A DNA stretch of 64,000 bases. It comes from Bacillota bacterium. GTDB lineage: Bacteria; Bacillota; DTU025. The DNA lies in contig JBMNJT010000008.1 of NCBI GenBank assembly GCA_050951805.1, positions 416,001 through 480,000 of the forward strand. The letters are read 5' to 3'. Of the stretch, positions 40,217-47,778 are shown piece by piece (the stretch's first letter is position 1; every line of letters begins with the position of its first letter). A program made the position numbers and the translations under genes. The notes beneath the pieces were generated by a model. It saw only the letters and a program-made list of their open reading frames with translations. It did no database searches and was not told the DNA's origin.

Positions 40217-43200
40217 GTGGGGTCTATTGAGATTGCGACTAAGCAGATGAAACGCGAGAGAATCCTGTTTTCCAAGGTCCCCAGTGTCCTCGATCTCCCC
40301 AACCTCATCGAGGTCCAGCACAAATCATATCAATGGTTTCTCGGAGAGGGCCTGCGCGAAGTGTTCCGAGATATCTCGCCAGTCCAGGATTTTACCGGCA
40401 ACCTTGTCCTCGAGTTTACCGGATACGCCTTAGGCGATCCGAAATATACGGTGGAGGAATGCAAAAGACGGGACGTTACTTATTCTGCTCCACTCAATGC
40501 AAAGGTCAGGTTGATCAGTAAGGCAACTGGAGAGGTCAAAGAACAGGAGGTTTTCATGGGAGACTTTCCGCTCATGACCGAGGCTGGCACATTTGTTATC
40601 AACGGGGCGGAACGCGTAGTCGTCAGCCAGCTGGTGAGATCCCCAGGCGCCTATTTTGACATTGACAGGGATTCATCCGGAAGGGAGATCTACACGGCAT
40701 CCATAAGGCCTAACCGAGGCGCTTGGCTTGAGTTTGAGACGGATGCCTCGAATATGGTCTGGGTGCGCGTTGACCGGACGAGAAAGCTTCCTGCCACGGT
40801 CATGTTGAGGGCGATGGGGCTTAGCTCAGATGAGGAGATCATCGAGGTTTTCGGAGACAACGAGTACATCCGCAATACGTTGGAACGGGACAACACGAGT
40901 AACGAGGAAGAGGCCCTGATAGAGATCTACAAACGCCTTAGGCCAGGCGAGCCGCCTTCTATTGATAGTGCGAGGTCTTTGTTTGAGTTTCTTTTCTTCG
41001 ATCCCAGGAGATATGACTTGGCGAAGGTGGGCCGCTACAAACTCAACAAGAAGCTGGAACTTGCCGACAGGCTGATCGGTCAAAGGCTGGCCGAGCCCAT
41101 ACATTATCCGGTTACAAATGGCACAGATCCGGCAAGGGCCGTAGTGGATTCGGAGACGGGAGAGATCACCTGGCTTGATGACGCGGGCGAGGAGGTAGAT
41201 CTAGGGACCAAGCTGGCGTTGGAAGCAGGAAAGAAGGTTACTGCCAGACGAGCCGAACTCGTTCGGGAGCTGGAACAGCAAGGACATATAGGAGAAGCGA
41301 TTCTTGTTGCTCCGGATGACGCGCCGCAAGATTCTATAAAGGTTATCGGCAATCGATATCCCCCTGCCAACCTTGTTGTAATTACGCCCGCGGACGTTGT
41401 GGCTACTGTGAATTATCTCGTCAATCTTCCATATGGCATTGGCACGATTGATGATATCGACCACCTTGGTAATCGAAGGCTCAAGACCGTTGGCGAACTG
41501 CTGCAGAATCAGTTCAGGATTGGATTATCCCGCATGGAACGGGTGATACGCGAGCGCATGACTATTCAGGATGTTGAAGCTGTGACGCCTAAGGGCTTGA
41601 TGAATGTCAGGCCAGTGGTGGCCGCGGTAAGGGAGTTCTTTGGATCGAGCCAGCTGTCGCAATTCATGGACCAGACAAATCCGCTGGCCGAACTGACTCA
41701 TAAGCGCCGATTGTCAGCGCTTGGCCCCGGGGGGCTGTCGTGGAGGAGAGCCGGGTTCGAAGTGCGCGACATCCATCATTCTCATTATGGCAGGATATGT
41801 CCGATCGAGACGCCTGAAGGGCCTAACATCGGGTTGATAGGGTCTTTGTGTACGTATGCCCGTGTCAATGAATACGGTTTCATTGAGACGCCCTATAGGC
41901 GGGTTGAGGACGGAAAGGTGACGGAGGAGATCAGATATCTCACTGCCGATATGGAAGACAGATACGTCATCGCTCAGGCAAATGAGCCCATGAATGAGGA
42001 TGGTTCTTTTGCTAGTCAGCGAGTAGCATGTCGCTTGAAGGATGAGATCGTAATAGTCCCGGTCGATCAGGTAGATTACATGGATGTCTCGCCCAAACAG
42101 TTGGTTTCAATTGGTACTGCCCTTATCCCGTTCTTGGGGAATGATGATGCTGGTCGGGCTCTGATGGGCTCGAACATGCAGAGACAGGCGGTTCCGCTTT
42201 TGAGTCCGGAAGCCCCGCTGGTGGGAACAGGCATGGAATACAAATCGGCTCTCGATTCTGGGGCGGTGATCGTGGCCAAGCATGGCGGATTCGTTAGAAG
42301 TGCGTGTGCTGATCGAATCGTGGTTGAGCGGGATGATGGCAGATTGGATACATACAATGTGACCAAATTTGCCAGATCAAACCAGGGTACATGCATTAAC
42401 CAGAAACCTTTGGTCAGAGTTGGTCATAGAGTCGAGCCAGGCGACGTGATTGCCGATGGACCATCCACTGATATGGGCGAGATGGCGCTGGGACGAAACA
42501 TTTTAGTCGCGTTCATGCCGTGGGAGGGCTACAATTATGAGGACGCCATCCTCATATCTGAGCAACTCGTGATCGACGATGTCTTTACATCCATACACAT
42601 CGAGGAGTACGAATGTGATGCTCGAGATACTAAGCTTGGACCTGAGGAGATAACGAGGGATATCCCGAATATCGGCGAGGACGCCCTGAAGGACTTGGAT
42701 GAGGATGGTATAATCAGGATCGGCGCAGAGGTGCAGCCCGGCGACATCCTTGTAGGAAGGGTTACGCCGAAGGGCGAGACTGAGCTCACGCCTGAGGAGC
42801 GCTTGCTCCGGGCAATATTCGGCGAGAAGGCGCGTGAAGTGCGCGATACCTCGCTCAGGGTGCCCCACGGCGAGTCAGGGAAGGTAGTAGAGGTCCATGC
42901 GTTTTCCCGTGAGAACGGAGACGAGCTTGCTCCGGGTGTAGGTAAGCTTGTCAGAGTTTATGTGGCGCAGAAGCGGAAGATCTCCGAGGGCGATAAAATG
43001 GCGGGCCGCCACGGAAACAAGGGCGTGATTGCCAAGATATTGCCGGTCGAAGACATGCCGTTTTTGCCGGACGGGCGTCCGGTGGAGATAGTCCTCAATC
43101 CGTTGGGAGTGCCTTCGCGGATGAATATCGGTCAGGTGCTGGAGACTCACCTTGGCTGGGCCGCAGCCGCTCTCGGCGTTCACGTGGCAACGCCTGTGTT

Positions 43201-43678
43201 CGACGGTGCTGATGAGGACGACGTTTTTGGGTATCTGGAGAAAGCAGGTCTGCCCGCAAATGGCAAGACTATTCTGTATGACGGGAGAACCGGTGAACCA
43301 TTCGACCGAGAGGTGACTGTGGGCTACGCCTACTTGATGAAACTACTACACCTTGTCGACGACAAGATCCATGCGCGTTCCACAGGACCATACTCCCTAG
43401 TGACCCAGCAGCCACTGGGCGGCAAAGCTCAGTTCGGAGGGCAGAGATTCGGCGAGATGGAGGTTTGGGCATTGGAGGCCTATGGGGCCGCCCACACGCT
43501 TCAAGAGATGCTCACCGTAAAGTCAGACGATGTTTTGGGCAGAGTCAAAACATATGAGGCGATTGTAAAAGGGGACATGATTCCTGAACCTGGCGTTCCT
43601 GAGTCCTTCAAAGTGATGATCAGAGAGATGCAGGGCCTATGCCTTGATATACAGGTCTTGCCTGCGGACGAGGAATGA
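40217..43678 (+). CDS. rpoB: RNA polymerase beta subunit, divergent paralog (copy 1)
   Basis: All conserved beta regions present ([37 protein letters not shown]); 1153 aa; start ambiguous (GTG 40217, ATT 40226 or ATG 40247). Confidence 0.95.
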
Positions 43679-47100: not shown

Positions 47101-47778
47101 GTGTTCGAGTATTTGGAGAAAGCTGGTCTTCCACGGAACGGCAAGACGATTCTGTATGACGGGAGAACCGGCGAGCCTTTCGACCGAGAGGTGACTGTGG
47201 GCTACGCCTACCTAATGAAACTTCTCCACCTGGTGGACGACAAGATTCACGCGCGGTCGACGGGGCCATATTCTCTCGTTACCCAGCAGCCGTTGGGCGG
47301 TAAGGCACAGTTCGGAGGCCAGAGGTTTGGTGAGATGGAGGTTTGGGCATTGGAGGCGTACGGCGCGGCCTATACCCTCCAAGAGTTGCTCACCGTCAAA
47401 TCGGACGATATCGTAGGCAGGGTGAAGACTTACGAAGCTATTGTAAAGGGCGACAATGTTCCTGAACCAGGTGTCCCTGAGTCCTTCAAGGTGCTCATCA
47501 AGGAACTTCAGAGCCTGTGCCTTGATGTGAAGGTTTTGTCAGAGGATGAGGAAGAGATAGAAATTCGCGAGCTCGACGATGATATCGAAGGCACCGCACG
47601 AGAGCTGGGCCTCGATATTGGCAATCGGTCAGGGCGACTCGAGTCGGGTGGCGCGGCGGCGTCCACGAGGGTGGGCAAAACCCTTGACGAAGATGGCGAG
47701 GATGAACCTGATGACAGTGATGATGAAGATCAGCTCGACGCCGAGGATGAAGGAGACAGCGACTACGATGCCGATTAG
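44104..47778 (+). CDS. rpoB: RNA polymerase beta subunit, canonical copy (copy 2)
   Basis: Canonical [12 protein letters not shown], acidic C-terminal tail, directly upstream of rpoC; ATG 44104 after AGGGTG (GTG 44095 possible). Confidence 0.97.

Follow-up and report, generated by a model that had tools for sequence, protein, structure and literature searches.

The window, a stretch of 64,000 nucleotides from the genome of an uncultured Bacillota bacterium, carries two intact and diverged rpoB genes in tandem. Copy 1 is probably an alternative beta subunit of RNA polymerase and copy 2 the housekeeping one, both having been selectively kept since a tandem duplication, and copy 1 would be a component of a second core enzyme. 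Bacteria are usually described as having one core RNA polymerase that is diversified through sigma factors, and the known exceptions with a second rpoB are mostly actinomycetes and are tied to substitutions in the rifamycin pocket. The pair described here lies in a non-actinomycete, is placed in tandem within the native operon, is common to three species and has unchanged rifampicin clusters, and both of its members are under purifying selection.

Locus organization and gene content

The open reading frame list of the window gives the operon order rplJ, rplL, copy 1, copy 2, rpoC, which is the usual rplL-rpoB-rpoC context, and all features described below are on the forward strand. Copy 1 (40217..43678) encodes 1153 aa from a GTG start at 40217, with an alternative ATG at 40247. 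Copy 2 (44095..47778) encodes 1227 aa from a GTG start at 44095, with the ATG that is conserved in the family at 44104. The starts agree with the two full-length beta reading frames offset by 3878 nt that had been reported in the first-pass annotation (44095 minus 40217). The 416-nt spacer between the copies (43679..44094) carries the promoter-like site and leader of copy 2. Copy 2 lies directly upstream of rpoC (47835..51659, 1274 aa), the sole beta' gene found in the genome. Exactly two rpoB matches were found in the genome, both on contig C8, of which the window covers 416001-480000.

The first-pass estimate of colinear, ungapped copies with 84-85 % identity is borne out by BLASTP (972 of 1148 identities or 85 %, 1059 of 1148 positives, 0 gaps), and neither reading frame contains a stop or frameshift, as had been stated. 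All six Pfam domains (Rpb2_1, _2, _3, _45, _6 and _7) occur in order and at identical coordinates in both copies, with E-values of 1e-21 to 1e-139, all above the curated cut-offs. The motifs [12 protein letters not shown] and HLVDDK are the same in copy 1 and copy 2, as are the conserved active-centre motifs [18 protein letters not shown], which we take to have catalytic roles and which are unchanged in all species examined. The earlier remark that both copies keep their motifs needs amending, since at three sites that are invariant in 19 of 19 relatives copy 1 of the window is changed (R540W, A664G and E672G in E. coli numbering). Both copies have an insert at approximately aa 285-390, previously noted as lineage-specific and shared, and so do the family's single-copy relatives.

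Authenticity of the tandem arrangement

A tandem produced by merging two strains or organisms into one contig has next to no probability here and was rejected on the grounds of bridging contigs, recurrence in three species and flat depth. The genome (2.75 Mb, 8 contigs, 97.08 % complete) is metagenome-derived with 2.73 % contamination, being represented in sludge and anaerobic-digester runs, and contigs of genomes G001 and G002 end inside rpoB, all of which could be expected of an artefact. Against this, the junction between the copies (43678-44104), at which a chimera would show, is spanned by a 2794-nt contig from the independent DNA run X8 (43304-46097, 2 mismatches), whose study is not flagged as a possible source of the window genome, and a 1930-nt metagenome contig (L111) joins the end of copy 1 to copy 2. 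A contig from RNA run X15 (43000-43978) also crosses the spacer. In the DNA run, contig depth stays flat at ~135-220 over both copies and their flanks. The order rplL-copy 1-copy 2-rpoC recurs in three species and in five separate assemblies (the window, run X8, L111, G001:C78 and L109), and copy 1 has no partner genome from which it could have come, its nearest sequences other than copy 1 itself being copy 2 of its own genus.

Origin and distribution of the duplication

The tandem was found in two sister species in addition to the window species (species A). In species B, contig C78 of G001 reads nusG-rplKAJL, copy 1 (1149 aa) and the start of copy 2, and contig C155 holds the remainder of copy 2 including the tail, followed by rpoC and rpsL. 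In species C a 48.9-kb contig (L109) reads nusG-rplKAJL, copy 1 (1162 aa), 398 nt and copy 2. Together with their orthologues, the two copies make up a single clade that is specific to the genus and lies within the family, with SH-aLRT support of 100 at full length and of 100, 99 and 96 in three region trees, in agreement with the proposed local duplication. The topology of a 20-row tree is (c2,(c1 A,c1 B)), with SH-aLRT 100 at both forks and a position inside the family, and each of the three region trees recovers copy 1 as monophyletic (support 100, 98 and 98). Import of copy 1 from another lineage is ruled out by its nesting in the genus clade in the full-length and the three region trees.

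Within the window, dS between the copies is 1.55 by NG86 and 1.38 by YN00, and overall it is 1.4-1.7; because of these values the duplication, which by its position in the trees arose within this genus, is judged to be old. As judged from the aligned sequences, the duplicated unit included the promoter and the conserved 5' leader hairpin.

Other rpoB pairs in the phylum were sought in 401 genomes using aa 853-1153 of copy 2 as the query. A match was obtained in 391 of the 401, and G000 and G001 alone were listed with two full-length matches. By hand count of the table, 31 further genomes gave 2 or 3 matches, and five of these were examined: G050 has a single open reading frame whose match is split in two, the matches of G259, G146 and G387 come from gene pieces at the ends of contigs, and the second piece of G198 is 68 % identical and lies on a small contig of a bin with 7 % contamination. 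The best E-values of the remaining 26 (1e-57 to 1e-92) are as expected for split matches. A second rpoB piece in the sister genus (G009, contig C255) is 73-80 % identical to every other row and was read as a foreign contig, not a paralogue. A contig search, whose listed matches were generic rpoB peptides and which gives a rough taxonomic placement only, had best named matches of 71-77 % identity (Pelotomaculum, Peptococcaceae, Desulfosporosinus and Bacillota MAGs) and no further tandem rpoB locus among the matches listed.

Divergence of the two copies

The rows of copy 1 and copy 2 are separated by 59 alignment columns, at which the family-majority residue is found in copy 2 in 44 cases, in copy 1 in five and in neither in ten. 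Most of the columns (39) are in aa 1-467, three are in the 387-residue Rpb2_6 and six are in the last 81 residues. The C-terminal tail of copy 2 (47554..47775) is acidic, with 30 D+E and 6 K+R among 74 aa; such a tail is also present in the eight single-copy relatives of the family, whereas copy 1 lacks it in each of the three species. The ATG start that is conserved in the family is kept in copy 2 and lost in copy 1. On these characters copy 2 is the ancestral-type paralogue, having retained the residues, the ATG start and the acidic tail, and copy 1 the derived, faster-evolving paralogue that lacks the tail.

In fork loop 2, RER is changed to RRR in copy 1 and to WRR in copy 1 of the window, E541R (E. 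coli numbering) being common to all three copy 1 orthologues. The R540W, A664G and E672G changes are not shared by copy 1 of species B or C, and these three radical changes could mean that constraint is relaxing in the window species.

Selection, evolutionary rate and gene conversion

Purifying selection on both copies had been claimed from the first inspection, and dN/dS came to 0.04-0.07 among copy 1 orthologues, 0.03-0.06 among copy 2 orthologues and 0.056-0.096 among single-copy relatives, ratios that are approximate because most dS values are saturated. For copy 1 the comparison of species A with B gave dN 0.083, dS 1.87 and a ratio of 0.044, and that of B with C, in which dS is unsaturated, gave dN 0.042, dS 0.65 and a ratio of 0.064 over 853 codons; for copy 2 the ratio between species A and C was 0.050. 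These values, far from the ratio near 1 that would have spoken against selection on copy 1, indicate that strong purifying selection acts on both copies. The rates are unequal. A Tajima relative-rate test with G004 as the outgroup counted 95 changes unique to copy 1 and 25 unique to copy 2 (p = 1.7e-10), and with four agreeing outgroups the counts were 61 and 5; the copy 1 protein has evolved approximately 4 times faster than that of copy 2. Only 15 of 502 near-invariant columns are altered in copy 1.

The faster protein evolution, the radical changes at invariant sites in the window species, the loss of the ancestral ATG start and of the tail, and an RNA contig depth that seems lower, although this is a weak indication, would all suit a redundant copy 1 that has no distinct function and is drifting towards loss or is kept for beta dosage alone. 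This reading is nevertheless distinctly unlikely. The frame has stayed intact at 1149-1162 aa in three species despite inter-species dS values of 0.65-1.9, the dN/dS of copy 1 lies in the range seen for copy 2 and for the single-copy relatives, few of the near-invariant columns have changed, and the promoter and the leader hairpin, the latter with a compensatory pair, are retained. A copy kept for dosage would moreover be expected to stay similar, and the window species is without any recent conversion: none was seen between its copies, whose longest identical nucleotide run is 38 nt.

The sister species differ in this respect, and near-identity tracts set in otherwise deep divergence, as partial concerted evolution would leave, are found in both. 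The paralogues of species B have a 323-nt identical run and dS of 0-0.45 across aa 680-1130, and those of species C have dS of 0.11-0.24 across aa 700-850. These tracts indicate that gene conversion is homogenising the copies of species B and C from approximately aa 700 onward, so that the parts kept distinct would be no more than the N-terminal 60 %, fork loop 2 and the very end of the C-terminus. The case shows how an essential gene is partitioned by selection and gene conversion.

Promoters, leaders and transcripts

A consensus scan found a promoter-like site ahead of each copy. The site of copy 1 (39945..39973) consists of TTGACG, 17 nt and TAACAT with TG ahead of the second hexamer, and that of copy 2 (43809..43837) of TTGACG, 17 nt and TAGCAT, also with TG; the copy 1 site aligns with that of copy 2 and with the site of the single-copy relatives. 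Each leader contains a hairpin, at 40132..40182 for copy 1 (AGTGCGG ... CTGCACT) and at 44003..44053 for copy 2 (AGCGCGG ... CCGCGCT). In an RNAalifold alignment of 11 leaders the outer 7-bp stem is canonical in all 11 rows, and the hairpin of copy 1 has the only both-sided (compensatory) change among them, from C-G to U-A. Neither leader matches any Rfam family, and a search of 36000-48500 against Rfam gave a single sub-threshold match, to the L10 leader at 38369-38559 (26.3 bits, the gathering score being 44).

Both copies are represented by copy-specific contigs in RNA libraries of at least three studies. RNA contigs from two of the studies start at 39991 and 40005; these and the other contig starts and ends (39632, 43899), together with bin depths, were taken as weak hints only and apply among the matches listed. 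In run X15 the depth varies from ~7 to ~100 over neighbouring genes, and this unevenness, compared with the flat DNA run, argues that the library represents RNA and not carried-over DNA. Contig depth in X15 is 7-17 for copy 1 and 26-30 for copy 2, although such depths cannot rank genes. Three joints in RNA run X16 (41055 to 45328, 42100 to 46039 and 43855 to 43938) were discarded, having sides of 22-56 letters and, in one case, a depth of 821, and are likely to come from other organisms or repeats.

Comparison with known systems

A survey of rpoB copy number reports 90 species with two copies, mostly of Nocardia, Nonomuraea and Actinomadura, and gives three copies for a single Bacillota species, Oceanobacillus jeddahense (bioRxiv 10.1101/2024.11.05.622190); these four are the only genera named in the accessible part of its text. 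The duplication of rpoB as such is therefore already known. The initial statement that rpoB is almost always single copy, with actinomycetes as the exceptions, is to be qualified by these figures. In the literature searched, no description of a tandem or clostridial-type pair of rpoB genes was found, and the supplementary species list behind Figure S4 of the survey may name such.

For Nonomuraea gerenzanensis, with rpoB(S) and rpoB(R), the authors propose two forms of RNA polymerase and regard the second beta as a global regulator, and the decisive changes of rpoB(R), H526N and S531Y, are in the rifampicin clusters and confer resistance to rifamycin and sorangicin (PMC5431353, accessible text). 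That genome resembles the present one in having two diverged, intact rpoB paralogues and one rpoC-type partner. The present pair differs from that of Nonomuraea in its tandem position within the rplL-rpoC operon, where either gene is preceded by a promoter and leader copy, in belonging to an uncultured anaerobic-digester Bacillota and not an actinomycete, in the tail-less state of the derived copy, and in rifampicin clusters that do not differ from one copy to the other. Nocardia rpoB2 is described as dedicated to rifampicin resistance (PMC10719064, accessible text); it too is a second rpoB kept across species of one genus, in that case many, but no resistance-type substitution was found here in clusters I or II. 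The pair thus shares with the resistance-type second rpoB of actinomycetes a diverged coexisting copy and does not have its rifampicin-cluster substitutions of the H526N and S531Y type.

These precedents raise the question of whether copy 1 is a drug-insensitive target that keeps transcription on when the ordinary enzyme is blocked by an RNA polymerase inhibitor of the cell's own making or from a neighbour, which would be a special case of the alternative beta subunit with a defined selective reason. In the survey, as far as its accessible text goes, one copy carries resistance mutations in most of the diverged pairs (bioRxiv 10.1101/2024.11.05.622190). Fork loop 2, by the rifamycin pocket, is changed in copy 1 (E541R in 3 of 3 species, R540W in the window), and R540 is reported to be a residue of both fork loop 2 and the rifamycin pocket that contacts rifamycin B (bioRxiv 10.64898/2026.07.13.738162, accessible text). 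A further change of copy 1, I145V, adjoins position 146, presumably a rifampicin-resistance site. The comparison of the window copies over E. coli 507-534 and 563-572 nevertheless bears out the contrast with the actinomycete pocket cases drawn at the outset: the two are the same there, with no H526- or S531-type change, and differences start at 540/541 in fork loop 2. The many copy-specific columns in aa 1-467 lie away from Rpb2_3, which contains the rifampicin clusters and fork loop 2, the loss of the tail is left unexplained, and at this locus the gene is in the ribosomal protein and rpoBC operon and not by a biosynthetic cluster. Drug insensitivity as the role of copy 1 is therefore considered unlikely.

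Proposed roles of the two beta subunits

The reading preferred here is that copy 1 is an alternative beta subunit. The ancestor of the genus tandemly duplicated a unit of ~3.9 kb in which the core of rpoB was accompanied by its promoter and 5' leader, and selection has retained both copies since. Copy 2, with the ancestral residues, the ATG start, the acidic tail and its place beside rpoC, would serve as the housekeeping beta, and copy 1, with its own promoter and leader copies and without the tail, as the derived alternative. Change in copy 1 after the duplication was concentrated in four main places, namely the N-terminal tail, the Rpb2_1 and Rpb2_2 domains with the insert, fork loop 2 and the last 20 residues. 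Copy 1 may then assemble with the same alpha, beta' and omega subunits into a second core RNA polymerase with altered DNA handling (open-complex formation, pausing or translocation), and the ratio of the beta subunits may tune transcription globally. The presence of two intact, diverged genes suggests that these cells may build two core enzymes, which, as proposed at first inspection, would differ in their properties.

The retained differences single out the lobe, the protrusion, fork loop 2 and the acidic tail, and what the changes in lobe, tail and fork loop would mean for function is deduced from other organisms. Bacillus RNA polymerase has a delta subunit (RpoE), a small separate protein with an acidic C-terminal tail. 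The tail of copy 2 resembles the acidic, probably disordered tail of delta and is here fused to beta, and delta offers an analogy for what the copy 2 tail might do and copy 1 gave up. Fork loop 2 appears to matter functionally, judging from other polymerases; the beta substitution R542A is reported to halve elemental pausing (bioRxiv 10.1101/422220, accessible text).

A more specific proposal, to which we would give about an even chance, is that one operon supplies two core RNA polymerases, one with a tailed housekeeping beta and the other with a tail-less beta that has remodelled lobes and a more basic fork loop 2. Their ratio would be set by the duplicated promoter and leader, conversion would keep the catalytic half alike and selection would keep the DNA-handling parts different, in a diversification unrelated to antibiotic resistance. 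Several observations are at odds with an alternative subunit, namely the radical changes at invariant sites, the lost ATG, the lower depth of copy 1 in X15 and the homogenisation of the C-terminal part in species B and C.

If both enzymes form, the genus would provide a natural experiment on the roles of the lobe and protrusion, fork loop 2 and the tail. Assessments of binning quality and amplicon surveys that rely on rpoB as a single-copy marker would score this lineage as contaminated or count it twice.

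Organization of the rpoB locus

Two complete rpoB frames lie on the forward strand of the window between rplL (end 39548) and rpoC (47835-51659), copy 1 at 40217-43678 encoding 1153 amino acids and copy 2 at 44095-47778 encoding 1227. The first-pass annotation had described two full-length, gap-free frames beside a sole rpoC, and this is borne out: 972 of 1148 aligned residues are identical (85 %) with no gaps, six Pfam Rpb2 domains are matched by both copies at equal coordinates, and the genome (2.75 Mb, 8 contigs, 97.08 % complete, 2.73 % contamination) has two rpoB matches only, both on contig C8, and one rpoC. 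Copy 2 has 74 extra C-terminal residues, among them 30 Asp/Glu and 6 Lys/Arg. Long acidic C-terminal tails are found in all eight family relatives (single-copy rpoB; stop-to-stop frames of 1228-1278 amino acids), and copy 1 stops just past the conserved core in each of the three species: that of the window, G001 (species B) and that of metagenome contig L109 (species C). Copy 2 (44104) and the relatives keep the ATG that opens MDIAERP; copy 1 has lost it, so copy 1 must start at GTG 40217 or ATG 40247.

The tandem pair is real. The junction at 43678-44104 is spanned by a 2794-nt contig (43304-46097, two mismatches) of DNA run X8, from a study unflagged as a possible source of the window's genome, and by L111, a 1930-nt metagenome contig of the window species that runs from the final codons of copy 1 into copy 2; X8 contig depths are flat, at about 135-220, from rplL through rpoC. 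A chimera of two organisms is therefore rejected, and an assembly artefact of any kind is vanishingly improbable. The copy 2 part of L111 has frameshifts at G runs, most likely sequencing errors. The tandem is also present in the two other species. Contig C78 of G001 has the order nusG-rplK-rplA-rplJ-rplL-copy 1 (1149 amino acids, LPGDEE end)-copy 2 start before the contig ends, and its contig C155 opens within copy 2, at the SQFMDQ motif, followed by the acidic tail, rpoC and rpsL. The 48.9-kb L109 carries nusG-rplKAJL-copy 1 (1162 amino acids)-398 nt-copy 2. In G002, a genome only 72 % complete, a copy-1-type gene lies immediately 3' of rplL, and its contig stops at this same SQFMDQ motif.

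Origin and divergence of the two copies

The rpoB gene has been duplicated, and both copies have been conserved under purifying selection while diverging asymmetrically. In a 20-row maximum likelihood tree (LG+G4, quick search, SH-aLRT support; partial rows G001_c2N, G001_c2C, G002_c1N, G009_C255 and G010 omitted), window copy 2 is sister to the copies 1 of the window and G001, with support of 100 at both forks, and the group is nested in the family. Regional trees of amino acids 1-480, 481-800 and 801-1153, with added database proteins P0005, P0006, P0010-12 and P0025, recover copy 1 as a single clade (support 100, 98, 98) and the genus as a clade (100, 99, 96); the duplication thus occurred in the lineage of the genus and predates the divergence of the three species known from it, in agreement with the local duplication, rather than import, proposed in the first-pass annotation. 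The window copies have a dS of 1.4-1.55 and share no identical nucleotide run longer than 38 nt.

Copy 1 evolved faster than copy 2. With G004 as outgroup, copy 1 has 95 unique differences and copy 2 has 25 (p = 1.7e-10), restriction to sites on which four outgroups agree leaves 61 and 5, respectively, and the tree path from the duplication is 0.24 to copy 1 and 0.04 to copy 2. That copy 1, with this faster change, is a redundant or drifting copy is quite unlikely: its dN/dS is 0.044 between species A (the window species) and B (dN 0.083, dS 1.87) and 0.064 between B and C (dN 0.042, dS 0.65; 853 codons, unsaturated), so it is not decaying. Copy 2 gives 0.050 between A and C (dN 0.064, dS 1.28; 860 codons) and single-copy relatives 0.056-0.096, and the purifying selection earlier proposed for both copies therefore holds, with values far from 1.

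In species B and C the two copies are nearly identical from about amino acid 700 onward. Species B (loci L026/L023) has a 323-nt identical run and a dS of 0-0.45 over amino acids 680-1130, and in species C (L109, 5275-11756) dS falls to 0.11-0.24 over amino acids 700-850, whereas in the window species it is at least 0.8 throughout. These low-dS tracts indicate recent gene conversion, absent from the window species, that homogenises the catalytic halves of the two copies in species B and C; copy-specific sequence persists in the N-terminal part, at fork loop 2 (the region at E. coli 540/541) and in the last 20 residues.

Leader regions and transcription

Regulatory DNA is part of the duplicated unit. 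Each copy is preceded by a promoter-like site (TTGACG-17 nt-TA(A/G)CAT, TG upstream), and the leaders of both (39945-40216 and 43809-44094) align with the single rpoB leader of the relatives (loci L005-L012). This family-wide conserved 5' leader comprises the promoter-like site with its extended -10 and then a hairpin, AGCGCGG..TTGACT..AGTCA..CCGCGCT, whose outer 7-bp stem keeps canonical pairing in every one of the 11 rows; the sole both-sided stem change, C-G to U-A, belongs to the window's copy 1. A GCCC stretch 3' of the hairpin could pair with GGGU of the ribosome-binding region. Rfam holds no family for this leader, which may be an undescribed regulatory leader. Upstream of rplJ, 38369-38559 gives a weak L10 leader match (RF00557, 26.3 bits, below the gathering score of 44).

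RNA libraries X15, X16 and X17 of three studies contain copy-specific contigs for both genes, matching at 95-100 % identity; uninformative on level, strand and ends, these contigs cover 40005-40649, 41326-41973, 42266-42826 and 43000-43978 (X15), 39991-40723 (X17) and 41232-41674 (X16) for copy 1 and, among others, 44535-46704 and 46675-47832 (X15) for copy 2. Summed X15 depth varies from about 7 to about 100 over neighbouring genes, in contrast to the flat DNA run, which fits RNA rather than carried-over DNA. Since X15 contig 43000-43978 crosses the copy 1 stop codon, read-through into the copy 2 leader is possible. A terminator-like hairpin lies directly 3' of rplL at 39618-39632. An X17 contig ends exactly at 39632 and contigs of two studies resume at 39991 and 40005, a hint that transcription of copy 1 begins at a promoter of its own.

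Differences between the copies and proposed function

Fifty-nine columns set the three copy 1 rows apart from the three copy 2 rows. At 44 of these columns copy 2 has the family-majority residue, at 5 copy 1 does, and at 10 neither does. In copy 1 numbering, 7 fall in the first 29 residues, 6 in 30-140, 13 in Rpb2_2, 13 in 285-467 (insert included), 1 in 468-481, 4 in Rpb2_3 (fork loop 2 included), 3 in Rpb2_45, 3 in 626-685, 3 in the 387 residues of Rpb2_6 (zero between 763 and 1133) and 6 in the last 81. The first-pass annotation had both copies keeping their motifs; a 12-residue motif (letters not shown) and HLVDDK are indeed the same in both, but copy 1 is altered at otherwise invariant sites. 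All copy 1 rows carry V98A, I177R, Q490K, I493M, K503R, E541R, V550I, L1326M, K1328R and S1332G (E. coli numbering), at positions where 8 family rows, 5 more distant rows and E. coli all share one residue, and R540W, A664G and E672G are found in the window's copy 1 only, being absent from species B and C.

Duplication of rpoB as such is already known. Two-copy rpoB occurs in 90 species, mostly Nocardia, Nonomuraea and Actinomadura, with resistance mutations in one copy of most diverged pairs (bioRxiv 10.1101/2024.11.05.622190), and rpoB2 is found in many Nocardia (PMC10719064). The earlier statement that the exceptions are actinomycetes with pocket substitutions thus describes most cases, but not Oceanobacillus jeddahense, with three rpoB copies (bioRxiv 10.1101/2024.11.05.622190). 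For the Nonomuraea pair rpoB(S)/rpoB(R), the substitutions H526N and S531Y are described, together with a role in global regulation (PMC5431353), whereas the window's copies show no difference at E. coli 507-534 and 563-572. A drug-insensitive version of the alternative beta subunit, which has a precedent in the resistant copies of other pairs but is at odds with these unchanged clusters, is unlikely. The pair in this genus stands apart from known duplications in several ways: it belongs to another lineage, the copies lie in tandem, the regulatory region was duplicated with them, the rifampicin clusters are unchanged, one copy has lost its tail, and gene conversion has acted on part of the gene. 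A literature search of article texts did not find such a pair described.

From the intact motifs, single rpoC and precedent, copy 1 is rather probably an alternative beta subunit with which the cell makes a second core enzyme; it would be translated and join alpha, beta' and omega, and the resulting enzyme would behave differently from that with copy 2. The differences that have been kept, in the lobe and protrusion domains, fork loop 2, the C-terminal end and the tail, point to DNA handling and pausing rather than the rifampicin pocket. By analogy, fork loop 2 is functionally sensitive: beta R542A halves elemental pausing (bioRxiv 10.1101/422220), and R540 is placed in fork loop 2 and counted as a rifamycin B contact (bioRxiv 10.64898/2026.07.13.738162).

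Distribution and habitat

Among 401 genomes sampled from the phylum, two full-length rpoB matches were seen only in the two genomes of this genus, among the matches listed, and the 5 examined of 31 other multi-match genomes had no clear tandem pair. The closest proteins are labelled just Firmicutes, Bacillota or Clostridia bacterium metagenome-assembled genomes, and matches named Limnochordia are 71-74 % identical. A sister-genus bin contains L024 (G009:C255:1-3967), with a second rpoB C-terminal piece and rpoC only 73-80 % identical to all other rows, which is probably a foreign contig. DNA of the organism turns up in 11 studies, in metagenomes from anaerobic digesters, sludge and bioreactors.
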